DNA from: Schmidtea polychroa
Lineage: Eukaryota
Direction of reading: 5' to 3'
DNA length: 64,000 nt
NCBI GenBank assembly: GCA_044892525.1
Contig: CM097887.1
Location: 80,826,397-80,890,396 of the forward strand
In this document: positions 12,355-37,936 of the stretch, in pieces
Layout: each line of letters begins with the position of its first letter
How positions within the stretch are numbered: the stretch's first letter is position 1
Program-made: the position numbers and the translations under genes
The notes under the pieces: model-generated
What the model saw: only the letters and a program-made list of their open reading frames with translations
The model's database searches: none
What the model was told of the DNA's origin: nothing

Positions 12355-15300
12355 TGTTGGGCTGAGCCGAAGGGTAGCTGAGAAATCAGGTTAAACTTAA
12401 CTAAAGTAAAATAAAAAATAAAATAAATAGATTGACGAATAAAATAGAATAGAATATAAGAAAAAGCAATAATTAGAAAATAAGAATTAAAACAAAAAAT
12501 ATAAAAATAAGAACAATTAAAATAGGACAATAGAATGACAAAAAATAACGTAAAATGTAGTAGATAATAAGGAAATTAAGGAAAATAAATAAAAACACAA
12601 TAAAAATAAAGAAAATAGGAAGAAATAACTCAAAAACAAGAAAAATAAATTAAATTAATAAAATTAAGCGGTACTCAATTCTGATTGGTCCGCATAAACG
12701 AAAAATATCTATATAAGTAAACAGCAAACTCACTATAGTCAATGTTAAAACCAAACCAATTACAGGTAAGAAATAGTATTAAGTAATGTAAAATGTTAAA
12801 ACCAAACCAATTACAGTTACAGGTACTCGACAATCCAGAAAACCGACCGACACTCAGACGACTATTAGGAACAGTTCTATTGACAATTCATTCATATAAC
12901 CGATTTGATTAGTGTATATTTCGGCTCAGCCTTTGGAATCACAGAATTTTTCAAACAATAAGTAAGGATGTATTGCTATTGTAAAATTTGTTTTTTCAAG
13001 GATTAAATATTTTATTATATTAACGTAACTTTTGAATAAAAACTTCTCCATTCGATCTCAATTTTTTAATGATAATATAGTTCGTAAATTAATTTAAAGG
13101 TTAATGATATATGAATGTTTATGATATGTTTTGTCGTCGAACGTATTGATTGTGATAAAATTATTTTTGAGAAACGTGGAGTTGAGGAGACCCACGCCAT
13201 GGTGTGAGGAGCCTTCGGGAGCTCAGCCGGCGGGTGTGGATCTCTTCAATCACGCAGCTGACGTGGGCCGGAATGTGGGGGTTTCCTCACGGGTCCGTCG
13301 CTGAAGGAAGTAAAATGCTGCAAGCACGAGTTTAAAGTATAGAGGAATGCATTCAAATATTGAAAAGTAGAGCAATCTTAATTGAAAATGACTGAGGTGG
13401 CTACAAATTCTTATTAGACATCACACTCTGAAATTTCATCTGACATCAGAAATCGTATTCTTGCCTCAACTGACACTCTATCTTCTAGTGGCAAAATACT
13501 CTTCTATCAAAACTCACGTCAATAGAGAAACTGAGTACTAATATGTTCATTAAATGTAAAATCATAATATAGGAAGCATAAACGAAGATTTATTCAACAA
13601 AAATTTTAGTACTAATATATTTTTCAACAAACCCTTTAATTTTTTCATTTCTCCTGAAAATCCACAATAGCGGCAACATGAAGTTCTTTCTATAAATGAC
13701 TCTTTCGACCAATATAGGTGGAACTCTTTTGAATGAGTTGCTGTAAATATTCCACGAAATCACAACATCCAAATTGAAAACCGGAGGAAACTGCACATCA
13801 TGAGAATAAATTCCAACGTTCATGCTCGATGAGAACTAATCATAGGTAGCATATTGAATAACTGAAATAAATCCAACTCGCGGTATGAGACGATCAGCTG
13901 CAACCCGTTAACGTAGATAATGAGAGAGCAGACGAGACAAGTCACACGCATTGCTACACATAAATACACACTTACATATGCCGCATGCATTATTTTCCCA
14001 GTCAGCTAATGACGATGAGAACAAAAATTGAAGTACACGCACATGACATAATTATCTCCGATCGATATCTAACTTTCAGATTCATGTTGTTAATGAGTTC
14101 TACGAGTGAGCTATGCATTACCGGATGACTGTTATCAATTAGCTAGATTTCATAGATTAATTGCACCAGTAAATTCCATAACAAAAATGAATAGATCGAT
14201 TTTCAGGATAGGAATAAAAATCTAATCATACTCGAATCCTTAAAAATCTAATGGTAGCACAGTGATTGAATATGTTTTTTCGATTTTCATATACCAATAT
14301 GAATTACGATTTGAGGTAATTAATTTAAGGAGCATTCCCGCGGCACTAGAGAACTTTGTTTTTACGTTTTTTAAAGATAAATATCTGTATTCGAAAAGTT
14401 ATATGTAAAAATGAATATTAATTATTTAATTATGCAAACATTCTAATGTTTCCTAAACAATTTCTACGAAACCGATAATTCTAACGTTCACTGAGTCAAT
14501 ACATTTGCGAGTCATCTTTCACCTAAATATTTGAGAATCTCAGATAACAATAGGTAATGGATATTCTAAGTATAATCATAAACTTTTGGCAAAGTATTAA
14601 TCAGATGTTAATTTCTCTTGCAACCCCAAATAGACATCCAAGAATTCACTGAATGCAATTATAAAACACTATTTCTAACGGAACCATATCATTGACCTTT
14701 TATCCATTTTACTTAATTTTTCGAAATTAATAAATGATCATGTCCCATGCTGGTTTAGTAGAAATCGCTGATCTTAATTCTTATTCTCATTGTTTTTTCT
14801 TTGTTACAGTTATCAAAAATGTTGCCAAGCTCGAGGCCGTCGCTCAAACCCTGTTTCTCCTGTGCCGACAAAAACACCGTAATCCGAGAATTACAGGCCC
14901 AGATCGGTCGATATAAAAAGAAGATCGACGATCTGGAAGGTACATGGTTTAGCCCAGTACAAATGAAGGAGGTGCAAAAGAAATTGTACCGCAGCGAGCA
15001 TTGTCGCGATGCTTTGATAAGCGAAAGTAGAGCTCAGCGTAGCCTAATCAAAGAGCAGTCCGAAGCTCTACATAAAGTTTACGTTCAAGCCGCGACAACC
15101 CCGAAGATCGTTAGTATCCCGATTAAAGAAGCGGACAATATCTTCCCCGTCCACCATGAACCTTCATTTAGTTCACCACCCTTATCAAAAAGATCTTGTC
15201 GTGAATGCGTGGAGGCCGACCTCTCCCCCAGGCCAACGGACGTACCTACTCCCGGCACCGGCAAGGTATTGCCATCAACCACGACGTCCTCAGAAATCTT

Positions 15301-16103
15301 GTCTGCCAACCCTTCGAAACCTAAACGTCGCCAATTATCCAGAGCGGAGCGTAAGAAGCGTCAACGCGAACGAGCAATCGTCAAACAACGAGAACTATCT
15401 TCCAACCACCCAAGTACTTCGAATGACCCCCCCGTAACGATCGATCTAACCGTAGGGATCCCAGGGCGAATAATATCTGCCGCTGGCGTGACTTGGGAGG
15501 AGAATGCCTCCGAGGTTTTTGATCTAGATGAACTATTGGCGGATGCAGAATGGGAGAAGTGAGAATCGCAACACAATACAACCGTGCAGAGTGTTAATGG
15601 ACAAATAAACTATCATGACTCCTTTTCCTCTTAATCCATTTTCCACTAAGTGTACTCGTTATATAGTGCCATAATTATATAGTGTATTATGATAATAGAA
15701 TAGAGAAATTTGTGGGTTATTTCTTGTTGTTGTTTTGATTTAAATAGTTGTTGTAAAGGTTTAGAGTAGTGTTCACAAAGTGATCCATAAAGCGAGAGTA
15801 AATTTTGAGTCCGAGAGGCAATAGTCAATTTTGTGTCAAATTATGGGACAGGGTAGAGAGAGAATCTGATGAGGTAAACAGACGTAAGTCCTTCCATCGG
15901 CAGTCAGCAAGGGAAGTCGAGGCCTCAGTAAGGAGTAGGGGCACATTTCCAACGTGAAGCAATTCGCGGGTGCTATGTTGGAGAGTAAGTTGTGCGGGGT
16001 CCTGCTCCGGGTTGACACGGGCGTATGTAGCGTGATGATATGGGCACGCATCCCCTAGACAAAGATGTAGATTGAGCAGAGTCAACCGAGCGCTACCCCA
16101 GCA
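12355..16103 (+). repeat. 5' LTR (3,749 bp)
   Basis: Direct repeat of 38828-42618. By eye I counted 7 substitutions and 3 indels (11, 32 and 1 nt). AATAAA at 15604. Confidence 0.97.
14734..15562 (+). CDS. LTR-encoded ORF (~258 aa if a 52-nt intron 14758-14809 is spliced); putative nuclear regulatory protein
   Basis: 253-codon open frame intact in both LTRs. The upstream ATG joins in phase 0 through GTAGAA...CTGAT..polypyrimidine..CAG. Contains CxxC plus coiled coil, a basic KRRQ..RKKRQRER tract and an acidic-aromatic C-terminus. Confidence 0.65.
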
Positions 16104-16110
16104 TAATCTT

Positions 16111-16129
16111 TGGGGGCTCAGCCAGGATT
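16111..16129 (+). promoter_or_regulatory. Primer-binding site, tRNA-Pro-like
   Basis: TGGGGGCTCAGCCAGGATT versus the tRNA-Pro complement TGGGGGCTCGTCCGGGATT (3 mismatches), 7 nt downstream of the 5' LTR. Confidence 0.75.
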
Positions 16130-16393
16130 AATATGGAATTTCTGTCGAATAATGTGAATTCACCGGGATTATCGATTTCAATTAGTGGGCGAATGCAAAT
16201 TGACTAATGCCTATCGAATCTTATTATAAATCACGATTAGAAAATAATAGAATTAAAGATATAAATAAAGTAAATAATAGGGAAATAGGATAAAAATAAA
16301 ATAAATTATAACGATTTAAAAAGAAAAATGTTTGATGAAACAACCATTAATTAGCTGTATATTATTAAAATTTTTTTTCTTTTCTCAATAGAC

Positions 16394-16879
16394 ATGACGG
16401 AATTCGCAGAACAGATGCAACAATTAATTAATTTCATTAATATAGAAAACGACCCTATTAAAACACTCATACAAAAAAGAAAGCGAATCAACAGCATTCT
16501 ACTCCAAGCAATCGGACACACACCAGTCGTACCTAATCACGTGTTATTGGCCGCAGGTTTAAGCCACTCAGATGAAAAGATAAATCACGAAACAGTATAT
16601 CAATGGTACCTAAAACGACTAAAAAACCCGGCCCTAAATCTAGAATACGAGCGACTAAAAGATCAACTACATACAATATCAGAGGCAATCGAACAAAAGA
16701 TACAAGAGAAACTCACCAAATTGCGAACCTGTCTGTCTTGCAATCTTCGCCCTATACGCATACTATTCTTACCTTGTGGACACCTCAGTCATTGTGAAGA
16801 ATGAGTGAAAGATCTGAAACGATGTACAATATGTAAAAATGGGATAAAAGAATCCCATATGGTTTATTACGGTGATTAA
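16394..16879 (+). pseudogene. IAP-type C-terminal RING E3 ligase ORF without BIR; premature TGA at a Zn-ligand Cys codon
   Basis: CLSC..ILFLPCGHLSHCEE*VKDLKRCTICKNGIKESHMVYY continues in frame past the stop and aligns with the cIAP/XIAP pattern CxxC..FxPCGHxxxCxxC..CPIC. Confidence 0.85.
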
Positions 16880-17435
16880 AACGACTAACCAGATGCAGTG
16901 ACGTATATGCGCACTAAATTGATAAAAGACCTTTGAATACGAACATATGTACTTTTAAGTGTGAAGTAACTTTAATGTTTAATTTTAGTCTCAGGATAAA
17001 TAAAAATTTTTTTTGTTATGAATTAGATATTTTATCTCTTTTAATTACATCTTTGTTTATGAGATCGAATGGAGAAGAATAAAACTAACGTGGAATTAGT
17101 CCCAATATAGGATATAAGAGTACAAACCGAGCCACCTTCGGGCGGTACGTTCTATCATAAGACAAACCAATTGGGAGGGGATAACTGATCAACCCAAGTA
17201 AGAAGCGTAGGGCGGGGTACCATCGCAAATGATGAGAAGTTTCTACGACATGACTGATCACCATGCCAATGTAGAAATGGATCATCGCGATCGTCGTGCG
17301 TTTTGAGCAAGGGGGGAAAGGGGAAACACTCTCAAGCGGTAAAGATTAAGTCGACAAATTAAAAGTAGACAGAGAAAATGGTAATCTTGAGTAAAAGAGG
17401 AAAAGAGAAGCAGAAGCATGCAAAGTGAGGAATAT

Positions 17436-17962: not shown

Positions 17963-19326
17963 AAGGCCTAGAAAAGCGAGAAATAGCAGTTAAGCTGCAA
18001 TGAGATAATATTTAAATTAATAGCGAAATGGAATATTAAAGCTAGCTAGAAACAAATTGAATGTAATTACGAAATTTGAGTTTAGAGAGGAAATAAACGA
18101 GCTCGTGGAAAAGATGATGGATTATAGTGAAAAAGGGAGGGGAAAAAGGAAATGAATTAAAGAGATAATGGATAATAAAGAATAGGTGAAATGATGATAA
18201 TGAGTAGAAGAGGAAAGTAACTAACTAATTAAAGGGATCCCAGTGAAGTAGAGAAACTCTACGGAATATTTTTTTTGGTTAAACCGGGAAAATGCATTTT
18301 TATTGGTTCCAGAGTAGAACCGAGTGGGATAATAGTAAATATGAAAAGTAAAATAGCGGCAACAGCGCAAAAGGAATAAGAAAACGAAGGGGGGTAATAA
18401 GCAGAGACCGACAACGACCTATTTATACTATAATTGATAAAGATAGATAATTATTTTGACTTTATAGATAATTGTTACTACCCCATATAGATAATTTAAA
18501 ATCGACGAAAAATACGGGCTGATGGGAAATTATAACCCGCGGAAAAGAGTTCACAAAAGATAGGGAAAAACAAACAGAAACCTAAAAGGTGTCTGTGTTT
18601 GAATGTTGCAGAAAGAATGATGAAGTCGTGTAAGCAGATGCAACACGAGATCATTTTTTCATTTTAGATATCAAACCAAGCCAGCCAATCAAGCCAATCC
18701 AGAACCTGCACAAAAGGAATTCGAGGAAATCGACAATCGACCAAGAATAAATCCATTCAGAACCCGCACCGAGAAACACAGCAACCGGAAGACTCCAGAA
18801 CGGAAGAAGATACAGATAGCGACATCTCCAACTTCGAACGAATCACCGATATATTCAACCTCATAGTATTAGCAGCCATCTGTCAAGGACTAGTAAATCT
18901 CCTCAGAATCGCAGTAGCAGACTCATACCGAACAATTTACGAAGGAAACTTCATCAGAACCCAATCCACCCAATTCAGTAGCCGCTAATTACAAGGAAGC
19001 GTAAGAAAAGAATCACGGATAAACCTCATCTCAGATCATCAAGTAAGTCAGGCGACGTATTATTTTCAGGAGACGAATTACAACAACTCAAAAGAGGACG
19101 ATCTATTAAACATCAAAGAGGAATATCACAAGGAGCAAGAAGAACCAATCAAGTACCCATATTTGACCAAGAAAATCTCGGATACACCCCTAGTCGATCT
19201 CGAAGCAGAGAAAGTCTGTCCGATATCACTAATAGTTTAGCAACGTCAACCGAAGAATTATCAGCCCAAAGTTTAGTCACATCGTTAGACAATTTAAAAG
19301 AAACAGACGAATCTAGAACACCAATC

Positions 19327-20841
19327 ATGACGAATGTCGTAAAAACCGACGAGTATAAAGAGAAGTTTAGAGGAGAACCGTTCAATGGAAATGCAAACAA
19401 GTTAGCAACGTTTATAACTAATTTTGAAGTTTATATCACGGTGTGTGGATGGACACCCGAAGCAATTAGCAAAAGGATGCCGTTGTTTTTGTGCGATAGC
19501 GCATTAGAAGTATATTTAGAAGCTAAAGAGAGAGATACGAAATTAGAGAAGTGGGAAGATATCAAAACATTCTTGAAGAAAACCTTCGGAGCCAGTAAGC
19601 CAATCAACCAGGCGTTGGGCGAACTAGCAAATAGGAAACAAAGAGCAAACGAATCGATAACATTATATGCCAGTGAATTACGGAGATTAGCGAAGAAAGC
19701 AATGAATGGAAAATTACCCGAGGAAAATCTGATCGGCTATTTCATAGAGGGATTACGCCGAGAAGAGGTAAGAGCCTCAGTAGGCTGTCAAATGTGCAAA
19801 ACGTTAGAGGAAGCCATAGACTGGGCTACAAGATGCGAGCTCCACCTTCCAGTTCAAATGAATATTATGCAAGAGGATGGGAGGATAGCGACAGCAATAG
19901 CGAAAGCAGATACCGGAGATAACAACAATCAGGAACCGAAAATGAACCAATTTATACCAGGAGCGCATCAAATTTTCAAACCACCACAAGGACGATCAAA
20001 TGGGAAAAATGGTAATCGTAACAACCTGAATAACGAGAACAACTTTAATAATCGACGAAGTTTGAACGATAACAAGCAATGCCGAACATGCGGTAAACCA
20101 GGACACTGGGACAGAGATTGTTATAGAAATGCAAATTGTAATCGTTGCGGACGGCGTGGACATACGGAAAATATATGCCAATTGAGAGGTTGTTTTAACT
20201 GTGGTCAGCCAGGTCACATCTCCAGAGACTGCCGAGAAAGGGGCCAACAACAACGACCGCCACAGCGAAATACTAATTATGTATCGAATCCGCAACGACA
20301 AAGTAACCCTGGTGAAAGAAAACAAATGAACGTTATGCAGGAAATCTCACAAATGAAACAGATGATGCAACAAATGATGAGACCAAGACAAGAACCAGCA
20401 CCACATCAAACCCAGAATATACGTATGATGAGGAGTACCGAAAATCTCAACAGTTATGAAGTACATCAACATGTACAAGAATGGCAAAGACTACAGGCCG
20501 AGGAAGAGAGGATAAAACAAGAACGCAACCAACAACGACAAGAACAACCATTGCGAATAAATATGATGAAGTTAGTAAAAGACATGAAAAGCCAGTACTG
20601 TTACAATTACGGGAAAAACCCAAGGGTAGTACCCATGACTGAACCAGAAAAGGTAAAAGAAACAACAACGGAAATGAAAACAGGGAATTCAACCACGATC
20701 TTAAAAGGGAACCAGAGAATTCAGAAAATATTCTGGAAAAAGATAAAAGATAAAATAGAAAAGAAACATGAAGAAACGGAAATAAGAATAAAAGAGGAAA
20801 ACAACCAAAACAAGGAGCAAATCAGTCAGCTAAACCACTAA
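19327..20841 (+). CDS. gag: Gag: capsid domain plus three CCHC zinc knuckles
   Basis: Retrotransposon gag-like N-terminus (PFNG..FITNFE..W..MPLFL..ALEVY). Knuckles CRTCGKPGHWDRDC, CNRCGRRGHTENIC and CFNCGQPGHISRDC. Confidence 0.95.
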   Translation: MTNVVKTDEYKEKFRGEPFNGNANKLATFITNFEVYITVCGWTPEAISKRMPLFLCDSALEVYLEAKERDTKLEKWEDIKTFLKKTFGASKPINQALGELANRKQRANESITLYASELRRLAKKAMNGKLPEENLIGYFIEGLRREEVRASVGCQMCKTLEEAIDWATRCELHLPVQMNIMQEDGRIATAIAKADTGDNNNQEPKMNQFIPGAHQIFKPPQGRSNGKNGNRNNLNNENNFNNRRSLNDNKQCRTCGKPGHWDRDCYRNANCNRCGRRGHTENICQLRGCFNCGQPGHISRDCRERGQQQRPPQRNTNYVSNPQRQSNPGERKQMNVMQEISQMKQMMQQMMRPRQEPAPHQTQNIRMMRSTENLNSYEVHQHVQEWQRLQAEEERIKQERNQQRQEQPLRINMMKLVKDMKSQYCYNYGKNPRVVPMTEPEKVKETTTEMKTGNSTTILKGNQRIQKIFWKKIKDKIEKKHEETEIRIKEENNQNKEQISQLNH

Positions 20842-22146: not shown

Positions 22147-23523
22147 ATGAAAACGTTATATCAAAAATCTACAGAAATAATTGAAATTCACCAACAATGG
22201 TTAAAAGAAAAGGAACTACAAGGAAAAATCACGAAACTAAGTACCAGATCCTGCAGACGAACCCCATGGGAAAGAGAGTGGAATACAGAAAATAAGGAAT
22301 GGGAAATCCGGAAAGGAATCTTCGTAGAAACAGACATTGGTGAGACAGAAAGTGAATCGGAGGAAGGAGAAGAGGAACCTCCAGAATATGAAGAGGAAGC
22401 AAGGGGACAGACATCAGATGACGAGAGCGAGACGGATGTCACATCGGAAAGCGAAAATGAAGCGAGACATATTCATGCAATGAGGAAAAAGGAACGTGAA
22501 TATGCCGATATGGACGGCGAGGAAGCGATAGAAGCAAGAGAACGAGAAGAGAAGGAAAGATATAAACAGTTAGGCGATATCTTAGCAATGGGAGCGAAAA
22601 ATCAAAAACGCCAAGTAATAGCATTGGCTAACATCATCCTAAAGACATCAGAGAATATCCACAATCTGAGAGAAATGGCGAAAACAATAGAGGAATACCG
22701 GAATATAATGAATGGTATCCAGAACAGCTAGAACAAATTACTCGAAAATGGAGAAATCAGGAATGAGCACAAGACACCCAGGAGAGGTATCACATCCGAA
22801 TCAAGTATCCGGACAAGAGCATCGAAGAACTAGAGGTGCATCCAACAACAAAGGTTAGAGAATTAAAAAAAGAAATTAGCATATGAAACTCCATTCCATC
22901 TGCAACTATTCGGAAAATCACTAGACGATAATGCAGACGTCGGAATAACACCCATGAGATTGGAAGAGACGAATGTGTTAACAATGGCGGAAACGTTGGG
23001 AAAACCGTTGAAAAGGAAAAGCAAAAATAATAAACCAACTAAAGGCAGTTTGAGTACTCCAAGTCCGAACAAAGCACCAAGTAAATCTAATGAAACCGAA
23101 GAAGTTGAAGAGATAATCCTGGAAGATAGCGACGATGAACCAGGAGAAAGATCACCGCTATTAGTGAGATGGCCGACAGGAGCCGAAATGTGGACTAACA
23201 ACCAACCATCAACAAGTTATCAACAACCAACAAAATTGAACATCGAAGAAATCATCGACAATACTACGGAAACCGAAACGGATGAACAATTCAAGAAGCA
23301 AAGAGAACCAACAAGAATAACACCAGAAGGGCAAACTGATAAAATAATAGATGAATGGAATGAGTGGCTGAGAAATAACGATAGCTCATTACCCAGAACG
23401 AATAACGAAAGAAATCCGAATTACGAAAATACCAGAGAAGCCGGAGCGATGATGGAAAACGGGCAAAAGGAAGACCTAAGAAACAAGGAGAAAAGTCTGA
23501 GTTCAAAACCAAGGAACAATTAA
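22147..23523 (+). pseudogene. Disrupted polyprotein segment: acidic region, a third ubiquitin-like domain (22785-22985, frameshifted in an A7 run) and a low-complexity linker
   Basis: 22147 is in frame with the previous ORF. Removing one A at ~22870 gives YHIRIKYPDKSIEELEVHPTTKVRELKKKLAYETPFHLQLFGKSLDDNADVGITPMRLEETNVLTM, which is ubiquitin-like. Confidence 0.6.
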
Positions 23524-23546
23524 AGCAAGAACAAGGGGAAGTTCGA

Positions 23547-26500
23547 TTGGAAAAGTTAGATAAAATAGTATGGGATCTAAAAGAAGCTCAACCAACGATC
23601 GAAAGAGGAGAAAAATGGATACGAGAATTGATCAAAGATATGTTAATAATAACAAACCCACAACTTAGACGTTTGTGGCAACGGAAAGTAGCGAGTGTGG
23701 AAGCTAGACAATTATGGCACATCGTATCAAGGATAATCCCAAAGTTAATCAAAGAGAAAACGAAAACCACCAAAACGGATTGGGATGAAACAAAGAGAGT
23801 GATTGAACAGCTCACGACAAATGCAAATGATGACGAACATCATCTAGTGGTAATCACTTATTTGATGTATAATTTGATGGGATTAGCTGCAAGGAAAATA
23901 CCTAATAAACAGTTCGCAAATCACGTAGAAATGACAGTGTCAGTCATAGAAAACACTATTGAACCACATATTATCCGTGCCGGAGGATGGAAAAGACTTA
24001 TACAAGCGCCACGAAAAAACGAACAGGAAAGGTCAATGCAAGTTAGATTGAAGAAGTTGCTGAACGAGCTTGAATGGGAATTACCAATGAAAGATCCAGC
24101 CAGTAGAAAAGCGTCAATAAATTCGTTAATGATGACTATGATGATATGGATGTTGTGCACAAGTGGGGCAACGAGTTTTACCATCTACGATTGTGATAAT
24201 ATGATAATGAGAGATAAATACTCATTGAGAGATATAGAAGAATGCAGACAAGCATCACCCAACAAATTGGACATAGTAAAAACAAAAGTTACCTACCATG
24301 TATATCAAGAATCAGATTTCATCAGAACGCAAGCAAGAGAATGCGTTGTATCAAAAAAGGTACTCGCGTATTATTGCGGGCAATATTCGTATTCAACTCT
24401 CATACTACCCGGTCTAGATAAAGAAATCGTATCAATACAAAGAGAGGACTGTAAAGAGCTATTTAGAACCGGAGCGCTAAAAATGCATAACGGAGTGACG
24501 ATACACGGACAAACCGGAATGATAAAAACCGAAAGTGTTTATGTATCCGGAAAGGTGAAATCATCAGATGGGTCATGTAACGGAGGTACGTATACAATCC
24601 GAGGGGAGGTAATATCGGGAGTAGTAGTGATCGAGTCCTATACGGTTGAATTAAAAGAATACGAAGCGCAATTTGACGCAAATAATTACCAAATGAAAAC
24701 CAACCCGGCATGTAGGGCTACAGAAAACGTATGCAAGACAGGAGTATCAACTATAATCTATGAAGCTAACACGCAAAAATGCCGACTCCAATTGTTAAAA
24801 AGTGCTTTGTTTAATGAAGTAAAAGGGGAAATTTATGAGAACGAAAATGACGAGGATGGAAACGAAAGAGTGAGAATGCGAAATGGAAAACCAATGCCAC
24901 CATCTCCCAGAGAAAAAAGACTCTCAACGCAGAAAACACCAACAACACTAATCACCGACGATCCAGATCTAGGTATGAGATTTATCAAAGAGAAAGAAAC
25001 CACCAAATGCGACAGTATAGTATATAAAACCAATTACGCGGGTATCTATATGTCGAGACAAATAATCGATAGAGCAGTGGGAAAGATAGCAACGGAGGAC
25101 GTAAAACTATACTTATATGCAAATAATAAAATGGACTTTCTGTTTCATCGCGGACAGACGACGTTGCAAAAAGTATATTACGATCTTATACAAAACGATT
25201 GTTCGTTGAATAAAGAAATACTGAAAACAAAGCTGGCTATTGCGATAACGCACCCAGATAACACGATGCCATCACTCCCATTACCTGATGGACATTTTGG
25301 TAGAATGGTGGGAGAAGTGATGTACACATACCAGTGTACCAAGACGTATGCACGAATGCCCGAAAAATCCTCACTACCCGAAAAGAAATGTGCAAACGAA
25401 TTAGAGATTCGTTATAAAGGACAAAATCGATTCGTCCAACCAGTCACCAGAATTACGAACCCAGTAGGCTTCTACCCAAATCTATTTAACTGTTCTAATG
25501 CGTACGGACCATTGTATGAAAGACCCGATGGGAAATGGATAATGTTACCAGTAAAAACCATAACAGAGGAGCCCAAGAAATTTGGATTAATAGAACTCGC
25601 CACGGAACAAGTCTTCAAACCCATTGACGTATCAAACGGGGGTATGTATGCCCCAGAAGATTTAGAAATAGCTCGGCTTAACGTATTATTCCCCGCAAGG
25701 CGAGAATCTATATTGTCAAACATGGTCACAATAACTGGGGGAACGAATTACCAATCAGGCCCAAACTATGAACTACTGCTGTCACCAGACCATTTCCAAC
25801 AAGCAACCTCAAATATGATGAAAGCAATGTGGGGAAGATTCTTAGTTTTTGGACAAATGATGGCCGGAATATTGGGGATCATACTCATAATTCAGATAGT
25901 CAGAGTAATACTAACACAAATGTTAGCTTGTTTTGATATATACAAGAGAGAAAAGAAAGTAAATTGGAAAATGATAGTAGGATTTCTACCATTCCTAGCT
26001 AAAACCATGGTTTTACATGGTCACTCAAAAGACATTCATCGGATTAAGCGATTGATCAAAATACTAACAAAGATTAAAGGAACCGACGAGGAAGTAGGCA
26101 GACGATTCCGGAAAGTAATGTACGATGAAGCAACAAGACGACAACTGAAAAAGAATAAGCCAAAATTTTTGGACCGATTCAGAAGTCAATCATCTAACAG
26201 CGATAGTGACGACGATGATAACGGGAACGATAAATGTCTATATCCAAACAGAAACCCAAACGAAAAACCAATGGAAACAGCACCATATTGGGAAAAGGAA
26301 AAGACAAACACCTGGATCGCCAATGGAAGCTATATACCACCGGATATCGTGGGACCACAAGCAGCTTTGACCATGACACAAAATATGTATCCGCAATTAC
26401 CGAGTCAACCCGGTATGCATTATATGCCAACGCGACGTACCAAAAGCGTAGATCAAGCAGATGACGTACGAACAATAGCAGCAATGAATTCACCTGGAGG

Positions 26501-26993
26501 TCCAGCAGTGACAGTCATGATTCAAATCAATGGTAAAGAAACCAATGCTATGATAGACACAGGAGCTAATGTATCAGCGATAGCGATTAATCAAATTCCC
26601 AGTAAGCACTGGAAAGATATCGAATCAACCACAATCCACATCATAGCATGTAGTAAAGAAACAGTGGACGTGGTCGGAAGATGGTGGACTACATTGAGAT
26701 ACCAGGACAACGAAATTGAAACGTATTTGGCAGTAATACCAAAACTTAGCGTACCATGCATAATCGGAACGGATTTGATCCCAGAATTATTAAAAGAAGT
26801 GGTAATTGACTTAACAACCATGTGCCTAAAAGACAGAACAGGCAGAATATGCAAAATGAATGCCATAATCAGATGTCCAGAGAAAATTGTAGTACCAGCA
26901 AAATCGCAGATGATTTGTCAAATAAAAGTGGATACGGGTATGGAAGGAGAAGTTATCTTTGAGCCAAGCAAATCATTCGAAAAGCGACGATAG
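23547..26993 (+). CDS. env: Polyprotein segment: Bcl-2-like domain, internal signal peptide, chuvirus/gB-type envelope glycoprotein with TM, then aspartic protease
   Basis: BH2-like IEPHIIRAGGWKRL; hydrophobic LMMTMMIWMLCTSGATS; FTIYDC..YSLRDIEEC..C..YYCG Cys pattern; TM FLVFGQMMAGILGIILIIQIV; protease MIDTGANVSAI..CIIGTD. Confidence 0.8.
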   Translation: MEKLDKIVWDLKEAQPTIERGEKWIRELIKDMLIITNPQLRRLWQRKVASVEARQLWHIVSRIIPKLIKEKTKTTKTDWDETKRVIEQLTTNANDDEHHLVVITYLMYNLMGLAARKIPNKQFANHVEMTVSVIENTIEPHIIRAGGWKRLIQAPRKNEQERSMQVRLKKLLNELEWELPMKDPASRKASINSLMMTMMIWMLCTSGATSFTIYDCDNMIMRDKYSLRDIEECRQASPNKLDIVKTKVTYHVYQESDFIRTQARECVVSKKVLAYYCGQYSYSTLILPGLDKEIVSIQREDCKELFRTGALKMHNGVTIHGQTGMIKTESVYVSGKVKSSDGSCNGGTYTIRGEVISGVVVIESYTVELKEYEAQFDANNYQMKTNPACRATENVCKTGVSTIIYEANTQKCRLQLLKSALFNEVKGEIYENENDEDGNERVRMRNGKPMPPSPREKRLSTQKTPTTLITDDPDLGMRFIKEKETTKCDSIVYKTNYAGIYMSRQIIDRAVGKIATEDVKLYLYANNKMDFLFHRGQTTLQKVYYDLIQNDCSLNKEILKTKLAIAITHPDNTMPSLPLPDGHFGRMVGEVMYTYQCTKTYARMPEKSSLPEKKCANELEIRYKGQNRFVQPVTRITNPVGFYPNLFNCSNAYGPLYERPDGKWIMLPVKTITEEPKKFGLIELATEQVFKPIDVSNGGMYAPEDLEIARLNVLFPARRESILSNMVTITGGTNYQSGPNYELLLSPDHFQQATSNMMKAMWGRFLVFGQMMAGILGIILIIQIVRVILTQMLACFDIYKREKKVNWKMIVGFLPFLAKTMVLHGHSKDIHRIKRLIKILTKIKGTDEEVGRRFRKVMYDEATRRQLKKNKPKFLDRFRSQSSNSDSDDDDNGNDKCLYPNRNPNEKPMETAPYWEKEKTNTWIANGSYIPPDIVGPQAALTMTQNMYPQLPSQPGMHYMPTRRTKSVDQADDVRTIAAMNSPGGPAVTVMIQINGKETNAMIDTGANVSAIAINQIPSKHWKDIESTTIHIIACSKETVDVVGRWWTTLRYQDNEIETYLAVIPKLSVPCIIGTDLIPELLKEVVIDLTTMCLKDRTGRICKMNAIIRCPEKIVVPAKSQMICQIKVDTGMEGEVIFEPSKSFEKRR

Positions 26994-29900
26994 TTACCCC
27001 TCGCCAGAGAAATAATAACAATAAACCCAGAAGGAGTGATACCGATCAACATCACAAATTTTGAAGAGGAAGACAAAATCATCTACGAAAATGAAAGATT
27101 GGGAAAATTAACTCCAATGATCAATATCGAATTACCAAAAGTGACCAACGAGATGACCAAAGACGACGAATTATGGACAATCGACAGTACATTGTTAACG
27201 GATGCTGAAAGGAGAAAATTGCACCGATTATTAGTAGAATATAAAGATATATTCGCCATCTCAGATTTAGATTTGGGTACATGCGATCAGTGCTCGAAGT
27301 GGAACAAATTATGTGCCGGGATAGGCATGCTGTGGCACCCGGGATTCCAGGCTTTTATGCAGAAATTTTCAGTTGGGGGTGTTGCAAAACTTTGGGGGGT
27401 GTCCAACAATTTGGGGGGGGGGGTGTCCACTCATTTAATCATAAGTTTCAGGGGGTGTACCTGTTTTAATGTGGGGGGTGTCAAACAATTTTGGGGGGTG
27501 GGTAAATCCCTGCGGGATTCTCATTTTTAACCAAGCAAAATGACAGAGATTTTTTGCATGTGTAAATTTGTCTGATAAATAATCGGGGTCACAGTATAAA
27601 TAACTCAACAAACAACTTGCTGGTTTAACTAAAATAAATAAGAGAATATACCTACCTATCCATTACTGCTGCTTGGGAAATTCTTAATTGAATAGAGAAT
27701 AGAGAATAAAGAATATATATATACATACATATATGGATGTACTATGTGTGACCTTAATTGCAGTATTTGTGTGCCTATAAAATGAAATAAGTACCGGGAA
27801 ATATGAAATGAAGTGCCGGGATGCAATTCCGCCTACATAATCAATGCCGGGATAATATCCCGGCTATCCCGCCTCACTTCGAGCACTGCATGCGATGTTA
27901 CCCTACATGCAATACCACTCATAGACGAAACCCCAATTGCATTGAGACCATACAAGCTAGCAGAAATGCAAAAAGAAATAGCCGAAGCAGAAGTACAAAA
28001 AATGTTAGACGCAAAAGTGATCGAACCAAGTTGCTCACCTTGGCAATTCCCAGTGGTCATGGTGAAAAAGAAAGATGGCACCCAACGATTCTGTATCGAT
28101 TATCGAAAGTTAAACGCAGTAACCAAGAGAGATACCTATCCATTGCCGGACATCAATGAAATGTTACTCATGTTGCAAGGGGCAGCATATTTTACTTCTT
28201 TAGATTTAAAAAGTGGATACTGGCAGATTAAAGTCAAAGATGAGGACAAAGAGAAAACAGCTTTCACGTTGGGACGAGATCTATATCAGTTCAGAAAAAT
28301 GCCATTCGGACTGACCAACGCACCAGCATCATTTCAAAGGTGTATGAACTTTGTCACTCATGGAATCAAACAATGTATGGTATATATTGATGATTTGTTA
28401 ATCTATTCAGCGACATTCGAACAACATCTGGAGGATATCCGAAATGTATTTATTCGATTAAGACAATGGAAACTCAAGCTCAAACCCTCAAAATGCGATT
28501 GGGCAAAGGAAAAAGTCACGTTTTTGGGACACATAGTGTCAGCTAAAGGAAAGGAGCCAGATCCAAGAAACATTGAGAAAATAAAAACATGTCCAGCACC
28601 GAAAACTGTCACCCAAGTTCAGGAATTTCTAGGATTATGCGGATACTATCGCAAATTTATCAAAGATTATGCAGGAATTGCAAAACCAATCCAGGAATTA
28701 GTAAAGAAGGATATTTCGTTCATTTGGGGGAAGGAACAACAAGAGGCGTTTGAAACGCTGAGAGACAAACTAATCGAAGCACCTATCCTCGTACACCCAG
28801 ATTTCAAGAAGCCATTTCTATTGGCAACGGATGCAAGCGGGTACGCGGCAGGCGCGATTCTGGGACAATTAGACGATGAAGGAAAAGAGAGAGTAATCGG
28901 GTATTACAGTCGAACATTCAAAAAGCACGAGAAGAACTATTCGGTAACAGAACGAGAAGCATTGGCTATAATACAAGCTATCAAACACTTCCGATATTTA
29001 CTATGGGGACATGAGATATGTATAACCACAGATCACCAACCATTAATGTGGTTAGGGCAACATAAAGAAGCGTCCAGTAGACTGATGAGATGGGCCATGC
29101 AATTGCAAGAATACTCCCCATTTTTAAAATTCAAAGCGGGAAGAGCAAATGCCAACGCCGATTGTATGTCAAGATTTATTTTTCCAGATTTGGTGGATTC
29201 AGAAATGCAACGCATATGCTTAATAGTAGCGGAAGATTTAGATTTCTGTCAATTGCGAAAGGACCAACAAGAGGACGCAGAATTAAAACAAATTATCGAT
29301 TATGTAAAAACCGGAAAGACGGAGGTATATGCGAAAGATCAAAAATTAAAAGAACATATGGATAAACACCGACACCGATATATTATAGAGAAAGATTGGT
29401 TGCTGATAATGGATGGGGAAAAACGATTAATGTGTATACCGGAAAACCGACGAAAAGAGTTACTAACGCAATATCACGATGGGAGATTGGGAGGACATAT
29501 GTCATCAAAAAAAGACGTTAGCAAGAATGAAACAGAAATATTTTTGGCCAACCCTAACGGAAGACGTAACCGAATGGGTGAAAAACTGCCTAACCTGTGC
29601 AACAAGGAAAAACGCTGGATCGAAATGGAAAGCACCTTTGACGCCAATGCCGGTACCAATAGAGCCGATGACAATGATATCAATGGACATAGTTGGTTAT
29701 TACCGGAATCGGATCGAGGAAACGTTTATATTTTAGTGATTACAGACTTTCTCACGAAATTTCCAGAAGCATTCGCGATGCCAGACCAAAAAGCTAAAAC
29801 AATCGCAAAAATCTTAGTCGAAGAGATATGTTGCCGTTACGGGACACCGAAGCAAATCTTGACTGATCAAGGAACTAATTTCATGAGTGAGATAATGAGC

Positions 29901-30236
29901 GAAGTAACAAACTATTTCAAAATCGCAAAACTAAGAACATCTCCATATCACCCTCAAACCAATGGGATGACGGAAAGATTTAATGGAACACTTATACAAA
30001 TGTTATCAAACTACGTCGATCGTCACCAACGAGATTGGGATGAATACATAAATCTATGTCTTATGGCTTACAGAATGTCAATTCATGCATCAACGAAAAT
30101 GAGCCCATTTAAATTAATGTACGGGAGAGAGTGCAACTTGCCAATGGACCTGGAATACCAACCACCGATATCGCAATACATGGAGATAGATGATTATGTT
30201 TCGAAATTCAAAGAAAGAATGCAGGAGATTTGGTAA
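26994..30236 (+). pseudogene. pol: pol (RT, RNase H, integrase core), in frame with the protease across a TAG; disrupted by a MITE and two compensating frameshifts
   Basis: RFCIDYRKLN, LDLKSGYWQI, MPFGLTNAP, YIDD; TDASG, EREALA, TDHQPL; integrase TDQGTNF, YHPQTNGMTERFN. MITE removal gives DLGTCDVTLHAIPL in frame. The zinc-finger CxxC sits in the alternative frame (29479-29736). Confidence 0.97.
27288..27888. mobile_element. 601-bp hAT-type MITE inserted in pol
   Basis: Perfect 14-bp TIR CAGTGCTCGAAGTG. 8-bp TSD CATGCGAT (27280-27287, 27889-27896). Subterminal GCCGGGAT repeats. Confidence 0.95.
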
Positions 30237-33200
30237 ACTGCGGGATTAAATATCAAGTTCTACCAAGAAAGTTATAAAGATTTACACGATCGAAAGAAAA
30301 ACGTGAAGCAACATACGTTTCAAACAGGCGATTGGGTGATGATCGAGACCCCAGAATTAATTCCCGGAACCACAAGAAAGTTACAACGGAACGGAAAAGG
30401 GCCATATGAGATCGTGTTCGTAGGCGAAACCAATGTAAGAGTGAAATTGGTAAATAATCCATTCACCAGGCCAATATACGTAAACGTGGCACGATGCAAA
30501 TCAATTCCAAAAACAGCCACCAGTCAACCAGAAGGCCGTACATTAACCACACGTTCGCAAACCTACAGAATGAACATGATGCAACAACTCGCAGAACCTA
30601 TCACTGGACGATTGGGCATACAACCATCGGAAGCTGAAAAAATCGTACGAGAGGTAAAGATAAAATTACCCGGATGGGCAAAAGATCGATTAGATTTCGA
30701 AATATTAGGAGGATTATTGACGATGATCGAAAACTATGCAAACAGAGAGAGGACACATCCGTTATTGCGAGTAGTTAAAAGTCAATGGCCAATATTATTT
30801 ACAATAACAGATCATTATGGAGACACACCATTACACAAACTCATGAAAGTAGGTAACAACGAGCAAATACTAGAAACAATAGAAGCATTTCACGACTGCA
30901 AGCGATCAACAGAACAAGAAAACAACCAAGGCTACACACCATTAATGATAGCAGCAAACAGAGGCAAAATAAAAGACATTATAACCGCATTACTTGATAC
31001 TGGATCAAAAATAACTACACAAGATCACGAGCGGAAAAACGCACTACATCATGCTATCGAAGGGAAAAGTACCGAGGCGTTCACGTCGTTGATGGAACTA
31101 CTATCATATGAGGACAATCAAGAAGTCGGAAACATGTATGATGGATTATTAACAGCGATCAAAGAGAAACTGACAACAATTACCGGAGTATTAATCACTT
31201 GGAGAAACCCAATTAAAAATAATTATATGATCAACGTAAACGAAGCATTCACGAGAGGAGAGAACACGCTTATGAGAGAAGCTATGAAAGGACATCATTT
31301 ATTCGAAATCCCGAATCAATTACTAGAACGAGGAATAACATTCACAAATCATAAGGATGAGCAGTTATTAAAAAAGCGAATTGACACATTCGAAAAATCA
31401 ATATTCCAATTCATTACTCAGGTACGAAATAAATATTGGGAAACGGTAAGTGTGTTATACATGATGGACACGATGAACAACATCCGCGAGAATTACCTAG
31501 ATATTATTCAAATACTTACCGCAGAGGAACGAATCAATAATCCAACCGGAAAGAAAATGAAAATAAGGCATGGGAAATCAAGAGAACCAAAGTCGCAAAC
31601 GAACCAAACGATCGCAAATAAAGTCATCGAAACAAATTCAATGAGTGTAGATCAAAGAGCAATAATATGCAAAGCGAAAGAAGTGTTCTTTGAGGAAATG
31701 CTAGAGCTCTCAGATGAAATAATAAAAACCGTGCATACATATGCAAGAGATCAAACAACGAATTTGGACATCGGTAAAATCAAAACCTTCTTGCCCCCAG
31801 CATTTACGATGGTAACGAAGGATTCCAGAACACCACTACAACAGGCAATATTAGCAGCGAAAGAAAATAGAGCAATAACGATCATGAGAATCCTTAGGGA
31901 TATGGGCGAGGAAACCAACACGAAAAATGAACAAGGCGAAACCGCCATGATGTATGCAGCTATAACGAAAATACACCCAAAAACACTCCACATACTACAT
32001 CAATCAGGATCGAGACTAGACGAAAAGTCAAACGAAGGGAACTCCACTATGGACTGGGCAACCATACAGCCTAATTTAGAAATGATCAGATTTATTTGCA
32101 AAAATGCGACAAGAGAAGAAGTTGAAAATATATGCAAAAACACAGCTCAATTTCAATGGAATACGGTACGGAAAAATCTAGAAGCAATGAAATTATTATT
32201 AACATGGAGAGTACCACAAAATAATAAATATGCGATAAATGTAAACGAATTCTACGAAAACGGAGAAAACGCGATGGTAAAGAATACATTAACTAAAGGG
32301 GGGACACCAAAAATTATTTTAATAGTACTAAACAGAGAAGACCTCAAATTCACGCAAAATCAGAACGAGCAACAACGAATTGGGAAACATCGTCGTATTC
32401 AAATGAGAGAATTAGTCAAAGAATGGAATAGAAAGAGACATGCTGCGACGGGTAGAAAAGAGTTTGAATTCGAAGCAAAGTTAGCAAGGAACAGAGTGTT
32501 AACAGCATATCGCAGATTATTGAACGATATAAATGTCGAGGACGACATTTTAAACGACAGCGGGGGAGATAAACACGATGACAATGACGGAAAAGGCCGA
32601 AAAGAGGATAAAGGGAAAAGAGAACCGGAAGAGGATAAACCGGAAAACAAGGATTCGGGTACGAGAAGAGAGGGAAACAGCCCGGGAACCAAGACCAAAG
32701 AGGAGGAAAAACCGAATAATGGAAAACAGAGGGTATGCCTACCTTTCACTAACAAAGAAATAGAAACAAATATGATCTTAATGATAATCATGCTAACCAT
32801 GATAGAGTTAGTAACAGCTCATGGAGGGACGAGAACGATAAAAGAAACCAAAGAAGCGGAGAATCAAGATAGCAAAGAGGAAGAACTAAAACAAGAAAAG
32901 AAAAAGCAAGCACAAGAGCAGCAGTGGGATTTAAAGGAAGAATGGGGCCTAAAGGAAAGGTGCATACTAGGAAGATGTATGTCTAGAGCGTATCAGAGAT
33001 TAGTACTGATAAATGAGGACACAGAACCGATAACAGAAGTAAGAATACAAGAAGCATACCGAAATCGAGACGGCAAGAGAATAACGAACGTTAAAGGAAA
33101 AGAGGTGCACCTAGGAAAAGGAGGTGAAGTAGTAATAACGCAGCTCCAACCAAGAAAAGAACACAAAGTCTGTATTTCAAGATTAGGACCAGGTGAGAGA

Positions 33201-33773
33201 TGCCATCAATATGTTACGCAGCAGCAGCCCCCGAAAGAATACACGGTTTGTATCTGGAGGAACGAATCAAAAAGGGAATGCCGACGATACCCGGGGAAAA
33301 GAGGAAAGAAAAGAAAAAACCACGACGAAAAGGACGAAGGAGGAAAGCACAAGAAAACCGGCGAGGAAGCTCAGGACAACTATGTTTCGGAGGAAGAGAT
33401 GGAAAAAATACAAAAGATGGCAAAGGAGGGTATGAACGAGGAAATAACAAGAATACGAGAGAGGATGAAAGGAAATGGCAAAAGAGGAAACGAGAAAAGT
33501 ACAGAAGCGATATCAACATTAACAAACAAGGAAAAACCAGAGAGTATAAGCGTGAAGCAGATGATGTGGATCAGCGGGATAATAATAACAGGGGCATTCC
33601 TAATCATAACGGGGGGAACAATAAAAATAATTAAATATAAACGACATCGCGGAGAACTAGAGATGACCCGAATCAGAAATTTCCAACATCGAGTGAAACG
33701 ACCAAGTGATATCAAACAAGAACAGTGGGTGGAGGCCTGGAACGCTCAGCGCCCTCCAAACTCACGTATATAG
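30237..33773 (+). CDS. Integrase C-terminus (GPY motif) fused to two ankyrin-repeat blocks and a predicted type I membrane protein
   Basis: In frame with pol across a TAA. GDWV..KGPYEI; ANK motifs GDTPLH, GYTPLMIAA, KNALHHA, GETAMMYAA; hydrophobic MILMIIMLTMIELVTA; TM WISGIIITGAFLIITGG. Confidence 0.85.
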   Translation, partial: TAGLNIKFYQESYKDLHDRKKNVKQHTFQTGDWVMIETPELIPGTTRKLQRNGKGPYEIVFVGETNVRVKLVNNPFTRPIYVNVARCKSIPKTATSQPEGRTLTTRSQTYRMNMMQQLAEPITGRLGIQPSEAEKIVREVKIKLPGWAKDRLDFEILGGLLTMIENYANRERTHPLLRVVKSQWPILFTITDHYGDTPLHKLMKVGNNEQILETIEAFHDCKRSTEQENNQGYTPLMIAANRGKIKDIITALLDTGSKITTQDHERKNALHHAIEGKSTEAFTSLMELLSYEDNQEVGNMYDGLLTAIKEKLTTITGVLITWRNPIKNNYMINVNEAFTRGENTLMREAMKGHHLFEIPNQLLERGITFTNHKDEQLLKKRIDTFEKSIFQFITQVRNKYWETVSVLYMMDTMNNIRENYLDIIQILTAEERINNPTGKKMKIRHGKSREPKSQTNQTIANKVIETNSMSVDQRAIICKAKEVFFEEMLELSDEIIKTVHTYARDQTTNLDIGKIKTFLPPAFTMVTKDSRTPLQQAILAAKENRAITIMRILRDMGEETNTKNEQGETAMMYAAITKIHPKTLHILHQSGSRLDEKSNEGNSTMDWATIQPNLEMIRFICKNATREEVENICKNTAQFQWNTVRKNLEAMKLLLTWRVPQNNKYAINVNEFYENGENAMVKNTLTKGGTPKIILIVLNREDLKFTQNQNEQQRIGKHRRIQMRELVKEWNRKRHAATGRKEFEFEAKLARNRVLTAYRRLLNDINVEDDILNDSGGDKHDDNDGKGRKEDKGKREPEEDKPENKDSGTRREGNSPGTKTKEEEKPNNGKQRVCLPFTNKEIETNMILMIIMLTMIELVTAHGGTRTIKETKEAENQDSKEEELKQEKKKQAQEQQWDLKEEWGLKERCILGRCMSRAYQRLVLINEDTEPITEVRIQEAYRNRDGKRITNVKGKEVHLGKGGEVVITQLQPRKEHKVCISRLGPGERCHQYVTQQQPPKEYTVCIWRNESKRECRRYPGKRGKKRKNHDEKDEGGKHKKTGEEAQDNYVSEEEMEKIQKMAKEGMNEEITRIRERMKGNGKRGNEKSTEAISTLTNKEKPESISVKQMMWISGIIITGAFLIITGGTIKIIKYKRHRGELEMTRIRNFQHRVKRPSDIKQEQWVEAWNAQRPPNSRI

Positions 33774-34378: not shown

Positions 34379-35767
34379 ATGGATAAACGACAAAGAGAAG
34401 AGTTCAGAGAGATTGTCGAACAAGTCCGAAAATCTACAACGATCAGAATACACAAACATGTTATGTGCGGAATATGTGAAAAGTTGCTAAAAGAACCCCA
34501 CCAAACCCTATGTGGATGCAGATTATGTAAGGAATGTATCAGTGAAGCAATAAAGAATAGACCACAGTGGTGCCCGGTGTGTAAAGAGACATTAATATCG
34601 AGTTTAGAAGACACTAACGAGGATAAAGCCGCAGTGAAAGACATGTTAAACACCAATCTGGGATGCAAAAATACCCCATGCGAATGGAAAGGAGTAATAT
34701 GGAAAGTAGTGCAACATATGGGAGAATGTATGTACAGAATCGGCCAGTGTGAAAGGTGCCATAAAACCATTCGAGCAAGCGAAGAAAAAGAGCATCAAAG
34801 CCAGTGTGAAGAGAGACTAGAAAGATGTAAACATTGTGGAGAAATAGATACGTGGAAAAATCTCACCAGCAAACATCACAATGTCCAAGAGGAAAAGGTA
34901 TGTGCAGAGTTCAGTGGGGAATGCCCGAACGGATGCGAGGAAGGGAGAATAATAAAAATAGCCCAACACCTAAAGGAATGTGAAAGGAAAAGAATGACAT
35001 GTGTACTCGGTAAATGGGGCTGTCAGAAGCTACTACACCGAGGAGAGTTACCACATCATTTAGTAGAAAATGCTTCAACCCACGCAGAAATGTGGTCGAC
35101 TGCGCTACAAGAAAGTGAAGAGAAAGTAAAACAAATGGAGATAGAGATAACATCGTTGAAAGTGTTAGTCAAAGAACTACTAGAAGAAAGAAAAGCGTTC
35201 GAAGAAGCCCGAGCTAACATAAAGATGCAAATAAATCGTATAGAAATCAGCAATAATCAGGCCAAGGTGCTACATCAAAAGATAACTGAGATAAATCTAA
35301 ATGAAGTAATACCAACAGCACCCTACGTGTGGAAAATAACGGGAGTAAAAGAAAGAATACGAAAAGCCAAAACCGGAGAAGAGACAAAAATAACGAGCCC
35401 CGCATTCCAGTCTTGGAAAAATGGGTACAAAATGAAAATGAAGATATATCCCAACGGGGACGGAACCGGATTAGATACAGACTTTTCGATTTTCTTTCTG
35501 TTATGCAAAGGGGAATACGACGAAATAATAGAATGGCCGTTCCAGGCAAAGATCGATATTGCACTAATGAATGACCGAAGCATCCACGAACAAAGCTTCA
35601 AGACAACGGGAAACCAAATGTGTTACCAGAGACCTACGGAAGAAGAAGGATCAGCAACGGGAGCGCCTACGTTCATCCTACAACAAAAAGTAGAGGATAT
35701 GGCGAGAAATGACACAGTATATATCAAGATGACTGTGAGGAAAGAGGGGAAGGGTAGAACGGAGTAA
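34379..35767 (+). CDS. Intact, intronless TRAF (RING, TRAF zinc fingers, coiled coil, MATH domain)
   Basis: CGIC..CGCRLCKEC..CPVC RING; Cys/His fingers; MATH YVWKI..SPAF..GYKM..IYPNGDG..FSIFF..GEYD..WPF. Confidence 0.95.
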   Translation: MDKRQREEFREIVEQVRKSTTIRIHKHVMCGICEKLLKEPHQTLCGCRLCKECISEAIKNRPQWCPVCKETLISSLEDTNEDKAAVKDMLNTNLGCKNTPCEWKGVIWKVVQHMGECMYRIGQCERCHKTIRASEEKEHQSQCEERLERCKHCGEIDTWKNLTSKHHNVQEEKVCAEFSGECPNGCEEGRIIKIAQHLKECERKRMTCVLGKWGCQKLLHRGELPHHLVENASTHAEMWSTALQESEEKVKQMEIEITSLKVLVKELLEERKAFEEARANIKMQINRIEISNNQAKVLHQKITEINLNEVIPTAPYVWKITGVKERIRKAKTGEETKITSPAFQSWKNGYKMKMKIYPNGDGTGLDTDFSIFFLLCKGEYDEIIEWPFQAKIDIALMNDRSIHEQSFKTTGNQMCYQRPTEEEGSATGAPTFILQQKVEDMARNDTVYIKMTVRKEGKGRTE

Positions 35768-37898: not shown

Positions 37899-37936
37899 AC
37901 ACCACTAAGACCAATTGTAAATATAATGAATAATAA

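Follow-up and report, generated by a model that had tools for sequence, protein, structure and literature searches.

Element architecture and candidate expression signals

The window, a 64,000-nucleotide stretch of Schmidtea polychroa DNA, contains an LTR element at positions 12355-42618 (30,264 bp, including an insert of about 0.5 kb) that is flanked by a 4-bp target duplication, CTGT. The open reading frame (ORF) considered here encodes a RING and lies between a PBS-like site and gag, where the original prediction had placed it. The features of the element and of this ORF are given below with the evidence for each.

12355..16103, forward strand: 5' LTR, 3749 bp, with TG...CA ends and target duplication CTGT (98.7% identical to the 3' LTR)
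12684..12773, forward strand: promoter-like boxes; short leader in which an ATG (12742) precedes a consensus splice donor after 12765, the candidate major donor (read from the sequence)
16111..16128, forward strand: PBS-like 18-mer starting with TGG, 7 nt past the LTR (by position)
16369..16391, forward strand: polypyrimidine tract and TAG, candidate splice acceptor (pyrimidine count)
16394..16879, forward strand: BIR-less RING accessory ORF, interrupted at codon 137 (gap-free 151-aa alignment to intact P0002)
16394..16723, forward strand: helical N-terminal region with a long pre-RING helix at its end (structure model; similarity of relatives against 1000 shuffles)
16730..16834, forward strand: C3HC4 RING core, C113 to C147 (Pfam zf-C3HC4_3; Foldseek match to the cIAP2 RING)
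16802..16804, forward strand: premature TGA at zinc ligand 6 (ligand column of alignment A4)
16865..16867, forward strand: Tyr158, aligned with cIAP1 Phe616 and 11 residues beyond the final Cys (alignment; available text of PMC6349121)
17517..17963, forward strand: tandem array of six 74-bp copies between the RING ORF and gag
18668..20838, forward strand: gag (Retrotrans_gag, CCHC knuckles), with a frame change near 18985
23406..26990, forward strand: weak Bcl-2-like stretch, mononegavirus-type fusion glycoprotein (env) and protease, in one frame (Pfam)
27807..33773, forward strand: reverse transcriptase (RT), RNase H and integrase (broken), followed by ankyrin repeats
34379..35767, forward strand: separate, uninterrupted TRAF-like ORF (RING, zinc fingers, coiled coil, MATH) 3' of pol (MATH_2 5.7e-25, zf-C3HC4 4.3e-4)
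38828..42618, forward strand: 3' LTR (LTR alignment)

The two LTRs differ by 7 mismatches and 3 gaps in 3793 columns. About 42 bp of the 3' LTR are missing from the 5' LTR at about 15248-15289, in the region of the LTR ORF, and the frame is left unbroken. This ORF of about 247 aa is uninterrupted in each LTR (14819-15562 and 41235-42035), lies behind a strong acceptor, and has no Pfam match. The PBS-like 18-mer, which presumably resembles a tRNA 3' end, contains 9 nt (16113-16122) complementary to the first bases of the LTR, and a clear polypurine tract was not seen at 38798-38827, ahead of the 3' LTR. The priming of the element may be atypical.

In the env-protease frame, Pfam matched Monjiviricetes_fusion (PF24664) at 3.2e-69 and RVP at 5.1e-10. 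A weak ubiquitin-like stretch (PI3K_rbd, 1.2e-4) and the Bcl-2-like stretch (0.021) both lie at the places expected for a Burro element; the latter had no Bcl-2 match in the PDB, and no dUTPase match was obtained in the element. A foreign-looking insert with G-runs, present as a single copy in the window, lies between protease and RT at about 27330-27810. The region 3' of pol (33934-38491) holds five accessory ORFs, which are one broken at 34081, the TRAF-like ORF, two rich in coiled coil, and one with a hydrophobic stretch. In four of the five, as in the RING ORF, a candidate ATG comes 1-2 nt after an AG.

We termed the element Burro-like by its architecture, after comparison with the descriptions of the giant Gypsy-like Burro elements of planarians (Burro1/GYPSM1, Burro2-4, and that of Dugesia tigrina). 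The available text of PMC6431247 describes the Burro layout, a BIR among the Burro motifs, and an upstream accessory TRAF ORF in the Burro-like element of D. tigrina. The present element shares with these a length of about 30 kb, LTRs, a Gag with CCHC knuckles, a mononegavirus-type env in frame ahead of the protease, ankyrin repeats, TRAF/MATH, weak Bcl-2-like and ubiquitin-like stretches in the described order, and an accessory ORF upstream of the polyprotein. In contrast to them, it has no BIR anywhere, its upstream ORF is a BIR-less RING, and its TRAF is separate and 3' of pol. The BIR motif of Burro1-4 of Schmidtea mediterranea was not found in the window, and the element is filed as Burro-like, not as one of Burro1-4. 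An accessory ORF 5' of gag had been called unusual, but precedents exist in the D. tigrina TRAF ORF and in plant Tat elements, which carry extra ORFs upstream of gag according to the accessible part of PMC4408406. The Tat ORFs share this position and differ in encoding unrelated proteins (plant mobile domain, Tr28) in other hosts.

The TAG ending at 16391 has 16 pyrimidines in 20 nt, the joint highest value among the 842 plus-strand YAG sites in the element; its tie partners are the two LTR copies of one other site. The strong polypyrimidine-TAG acceptor proposed at this position is thus retained as a candidate by sequence. The ATG of the ORF follows 2 nt later; a distance of 6 nt or less to an ATG is seen for 9% of YAGs. 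The ORF was likely expressed from a spliced RNA with its own ATG, probably by splicing from the consensus donor after 12765 in the 5' LTR. The leader ATG is in frame with the acceptors of the LTR ORF (14809) and gag (18667). When read through the best donor into the RING acceptor, it runs into an immediate stop that overlaps the ATG of the ORF itself, and expression would therefore need leaky scanning, re-initiation, or another donor. Because no Met occurs within the first gag frame (18668-18985), with which the leader ATG is in frame, Gag may start in the LTR leader.

Domain content of the RING ORF

The ORF comprises 161 codons from the ATG at 16394 to the TAA ending at 16879, with one internal TGA at 16802-16804. 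Its protein was analysed as a read-through product with X in place of the TGA. Residues 111-153 match Pfam zf-C3HC4_3 (E 8.4e-9, 35.5 bits against a cut-off of 27), and the zinc-ligand pattern is C113, C116, C128, H130, C134, stop, C144, and C147. The stop stands at ligand 6, a column that is invariant in all 12 other rows of alignment A4, which bears out the earlier observation that the TGA replaces a zinc-ligand Cys. The set of eight zinc ligands is complete in those 12 rows and incomplete in this copy, where a product ending at the TGA lacks ligands 6-8 and the dimer tail.

Sequence matches to solved structures were led by the cIAP2 RING (3.9e-9), followed by cIAP1, BIRC7, XIAP, and then IDOL (2.7e-5). 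In Foldseek, the model of the ORF matched the cIAP2 RING with E 2.5e-5 (rmsd 0.9 over 60 columns), with IDOL near at 4.1e-5, and the rmsd between the RING model and cIAP RINGs was 0.7-0.9 Å. Matches from the viral fold library were confined to the RING and came from giant-virus, iridovirus, and baculovirus proteins; none of them beats cIAP2. The ESM Atlas gave nothing beyond generic RING clusters under 0.9. By its closest matches in sequence and modelled structure, the RING is of the IAP type. It shares with the RINGs of cIAP1/2, XIAP, and BIRC7 (and IDOL) a C-terminal C3HC4, a pre-RING helix, and an aromatic residue 11 positions past the last Cys. It differs from cIAP1/2, XIAP, and BIRC7 in that the ORF has no BIR or CARD, the positions of Val573, Arg606, and the loop-2 Pro are changed, and a Glu is found family-wide. 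The dimerisation features of an IAP-type RING are present by prediction (pre-RING helix 79-110 and Tyr158), Tyr158 being beyond the stop in this copy.

Helices are predicted in residues 1-110 at 2-13, 22-39, 49-57, 65-77, and 79-110, in keeping with the original description of an IAP-class RING preceded by a helical region. The mean pLDDT of this part of the model is 73.6, with values below 50 at residues 41-63, and the fold search with the ORF model returned only generic helical bundles (Z up to 9.3).

A TGA within an invariant ligand column is how a selenocysteine codon looks, and recoding of the TGA (selenocysteine or read-through) or a sequence error would leave a gene that works in this copy. 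However, an Rfam search of 15900-18700 found neither a SECIS nor any other match better than E 2.6, by which the selenocysteine reading was ruled out. Other stops also occur in the element, with TAA, TAG, and TGA all represented, along with frame changes and an insert. A working gene in this copy is therefore highly improbable.

Pfam found no BIR in the ORF. A BIR profile built from 11 IAP segments, which recovers BIR-bearing proteins down to E 1e-88, reached at best E 3.9 in the six frames of the whole window and E 0.42 against the ORF, so that both methods agree with the initial classification of the ORF as BIR-less. The profile results also ruled out a first reading by eye, in which the N-terminus was taken for a decayed BIR. 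The IAP family is defined by one to three BIR domains (PMC7290580, in its available part), and because no BIR was found, the ORF is not an IAP by definition.

The N-terminal region is possibly a decayed IAP-type UBA. Residues 28-88 of the model of P0047, one of the relatives described below, superimpose on a stretch of USP5 that we take to be its UBA (Z 5.0, rmsd 2.6, 53 aligned) and on the UBAP1 SOUBA (Z 4.8). An IAP-UBA profile scored P0047 at 6.1 bits, a value reached by 0 of 200 shuffles, and the ORF at 0.0 bits (35 of 200). Profile-profile comparison with IAP-UBA gave a probability of 3.6%, Pfam UBA matched none of 14 proteins, residues 1-100 of P0047 had no sequence match in the PDB, and the N-terminus of P0002 had no usable match in the ESM Atlas. 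P0047 shows hints of a UBA before its RING, the arrangement found in cIAP and XIAP, but none was detected in the ORF.

Relatives, probable IAP ancestry, and decay

An exhaustive search of 1.84 billion proteins without a length limit yielded 229 matches at E<=0.001, of which the best 150 were listed. The top match of the 229 is P0002, a colinear BIR-less protein of 160 aa (E 5e-13) with a complete RING, which aligns gap-free with the ORF over 151 residues at 23% identity. A word-indexed protein search with the read-through ORF gave 33 candidates, none at E<=0.001; with alignment A3, it gave 5 matches among 1899 candidates, 2 of them new. None of 5785 candidates matched in a search for longer forms with alignment A1 (906-2585 aa covered). 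A form fused to a BIR would be expected at about 380-900 aa, a range that the exhaustive search included. Profile iteration on the pre-RING region collected 13 BIR-less relatives of 111-218 aa, not counting the Gag part of P0020. Five of the 13 have an N-terminus similar to that of the ORF at or below 1 in 1000 shuffles, and the other eight are linked by profile iteration; the similarity to P0020, P0002, P0152, and P0047 exceeds all 1000 shuffles. All eight zinc ligands are intact in the full-length BIR-less relatives. P0066, P0125, and P0074, which had entered alignment A2 through profile drift, were dropped from the family.

P0020 alone among the 13 relatives is linked to an element. It has an N-terminus like that of the ORF and a truncated RING, fused to a Gag that is 44% identical over 223 aa to the gag product of the element. 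Its parts map on the window at 16415-16795 and 19333-19998, in the same order as in the window, and it looks like a gene model spanning a decayed relative. Because this distant relative has the same order, the arrangement of a RING ORF before gag is inherited. The start methionines of P0001, P0002, and P0020 align to within one residue.

The family profile scored cIAP2 (59 bits), cIAP1 (55), and XIAP (51) against 41 for IDOL and 30 for MUL1. The RING tree was built from 50 of 126 RING segments over 62 columns, with 13 family, 27 BIR-bearing, and 10 non-IAP rows; it excluded P0020 (no full RING), 14 proteins lacking the full RING pattern, and 13 that carry vertebrate-like motifs. Eleven of the 13 family rows form one clade (support 84/84), and P0047 and P0153 fall apart from these. 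All 13 family rows lie on a side of the tree with 21 of the 27 BIR-bearing rows and none of the 10 non-IAP rows, but with support of 69/82, and a clade of the family plus the non-IAP rows was not rejected (p-AU 0.227). The ORF likely derives from the C-terminal half of an IAP, of host or viral source.

Across about 19 kb of coding sequence, we counted 9 in-frame stops; the count falls to 6 if the cluster at 22729-22864 reflects a local frame problem. The divergence of the LTRs (7 substitutions) leads to an expectation of about 1.05 stops, or 2.2 at the upper limit, for which the probability of 6 or more is 0.0008 and 0.023, respectively. The element also carries several frame changes and the insert of about 0.5 kb. 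From the excess of stops, the frame changes, and the insert, we infer that the lesions were probably present before this insertion took place (copying in trans), or that the LTRs were homogenised. The RING stop may be common to sibling copies. Because it is one of 6-9 stops, it is no evidence for specific selection against the RING gene. The earlier claim that a point mutation killed the gene in this copy is correct in that the ORF is dead here, but the stop is not special among the 6-9. Contrary to the test attached to this claim, an ancestral function would still be tenable if sibling copies had the stop in common.

The ORF might be a functionless, decaying remnant of a complete Burro1-like B-IAP gene after loss of the BIR. 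Burro1 has a BIR plus a RING (PMC13465017, citing Lee et al. 2026, in its available text), and here the ORF is broken, the RING of P0020 is cut short, and the E2 contacts have drifted. However, BIR-less relatives at about 23% identity keep the gap-free length, the start, all ligands, and the tail aromatic, which requires long selection in the BIR-less state, and BIR traces were found in no frame of the window. We consider such a remnant unlikely.

E2-contact residues and possible function

The loop-2 Pro has a role in RING function, and Lys as the linchpin can serve in some RINGs. MDMX keeps the trans-acting tail aromatic and is a poor E2 binder itself. The available part of PMC6349121 assigns the following roles in cIAP1: Val573 makes contact with the E2, Arg606 serves as linchpin, and Phe616, supplied in trans by the partner subunit, packs against ubiquitin. 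We compared these positions between 13 family RINGs, with this ORF included and P0020 left out (no full RING), and 27 BIR-bearing proteins. The tail aromatic is present in 13/13 family RINGs and in 18/27 BIR-bearing proteins. Conversely, Ile, Val, or Leu at the Val573 position occurs in 4/13 versus 25/27, the linchpin Arg in 1/13 versus 19/27, and the loop-2 Pro in 2/13 versus 19/27. This ORF has Ser115, Lys148, and a Thr at the three positions, and the E2-contact hydrophobic residue and linchpin Arg of an active RING E3 are thus not present. A Glu six residues past the last Cys is found in all 13 family RINGs and in 1 of the 27 BIR-bearing proteins. A linchpin Arg or Lys is not depleted in the family (8/13 versus 21/27, p=0.45). 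Fisher p-values for these comparisons overstate independence because the 13 rows hold two near-duplicate pairs and were found with the ORF as query.

With the tail aromatic kept and the E2-contact residues mostly missing, the residue pattern suggests, by analogy with MDMX, a heterodimer partner instead of a stand-alone ligase. This reading is weakened by the undepleted Arg or Lys at the linchpin, by the Ile at the Val573 position of the closest intact relatives, and by the non-independent rows. The proposed likeness to the MDM2-MDMX pair consists of the kept tail aromatic and the predicted poor E2 binding. It does not extend to a close sequence relation, since the match of the ORF to MDM2 among the solved structures has an E value of 0.41.

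A stand-alone homodimeric E3, in which the N-terminal helical domain would replace the BIRs as the recruiter of a host restriction or signalling protein, is possible but rather doubtful. Intact relatives retain all eight ligands along with the pre-RING helix and the tail aromatic, and the protein would be constitutively dimeric, having no BIR3 or CARD to hold the RING shut (PMC7290580, available text). P0002 and P0152, the intact relatives nearest to the ORF, have Ile at the Val573 position, and at the linchpin Lys is seen most often (7/13). On the other hand, the E2-contact position is polar in 9/13 family rows, this ORF among them, and the linchpin is Asp in the closest intact relatives. The original term 'captured E3' is questionable for a stand-alone ligase, since the E2-contact positions are for the most part not kept.

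It had further been proposed that the ORF encodes an E3 or dominant-negative partner for the element's own TRAF-like protein. One element carries both genes, the TRAF ORF is uninterrupted, and cIAP-TRAF complexes are established in vertebrates. However, cIAPs bind TRAF2 via BIR1, the BIRs being the substrate-binding parts (PMC7290580, as far as its accessible text goes), and this known interface is absent from the ORF. TRAF/MATH is found in three places in Burro-type elements (in the polyprotein, upstream, and here downstream), and TRAF and the RING ORF together are shown for a single element. A TRAF partnership thus appears quite unlikely.

The explanation of the whole that we tentatively prefer, with confidence a little short of even, is an old accessory gene, dead in this copy, of a Burro-like giant Gypsy element, whose intact protein would act as an MDMX-like partner. 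The intact protein would pair with an IAP-type RING of the host or the element via the pre-RING helix and the tail, and would lend its tail aromatic in trans while binding E2 poorly itself. The partner ligase would thereby be switched on or redirected, either to self-destruction or to targets held by the N-terminal helical domain. IAP RINGs are known to cross-ubiquitinate other IAPs (PMC3789170, available part). In this copy, where three zinc ligands and the tail are lost to the stop, such a dimer could not form.

The B-IAP of Burro1, which has a BIR plus a RING, is reported to keep stem cells from dying through the action of caspases (Lee et al., Dev Cell 2026, cited in PMC13465017), and the available text of the latter reports that this captured IAP protects planarian stem cells and aids regeneration. 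Both proteins have an IAP-type RING and are carried as cargo by Burro-type elements, but B-IAP has a BIR and the ORF has none, so the ORF cannot work like B-IAP. It is conceivable, though we rate it well below even, that Burro-type elements kept two IAP-derived tools, namely the BIR-bearing protector B-IAP of Burro1 and, in the lineage of this element, a long-conserved BIR-less pseudo-ligase RING that would pair with host IAP RINGs to activate or redirect them. The latter would be a retroelement-encoded, MDMX-like IAP regulator, possibly belonging to a set of accessory genes whose transcripts share one LTR splice donor, as those of complex retroviruses do. That the RING end alone is kept down to about 23% identity suggests that the ubiquitin-ligase half is valuable by itself, and an element with the RING alone makes it possible to test directly which half of a captured IAP is of use to the element or the host. 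The residue pattern yields a specific prediction, that activity would come from activation of a partner and not from a solo ligase.

IAP cargo in Burro1, apoptosis and ubiquitin cargo in Burro elements, and accessory ORFs upstream of gag are already in print. A BIR-less RING ORF 5' of gag in Burro was not described in the literature searched, which covered neither Lee et al. 2026 nor Grohme et al. 2018, and nothing on this ORF appears in the available parts of PMC8532177, PMC13238120, PMC9289625, and PMC7831173; BIR-less forms may already be mentioned by Lee et al. 2026. What is new here is that the BIR-less RING family keeps the dimer-tail aromatic and is mostly without the E2-contact residues. 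Since the wider picture has been published and the gene is dead in this copy, the gain is moderate.

The element is inserted in a protein-primed DNA polymerase B gene, with parts at 11427-12350 and 42922-43380, both on the reverse strand. The left side matches DNA_pol_B_2 (E 2e-8), and the right side is like the N-terminal part by eye only. Further pieces lie at 7578-8129 (E 0.02), 9994-10368, and 44092-44472, and the pieces around the polymerase gene suggest Polinton-like remains. At 45030-46598, perfect 571-bp inverted repeats surround a GIY-YIG ORF (45500-46135, E 3.3e-6).
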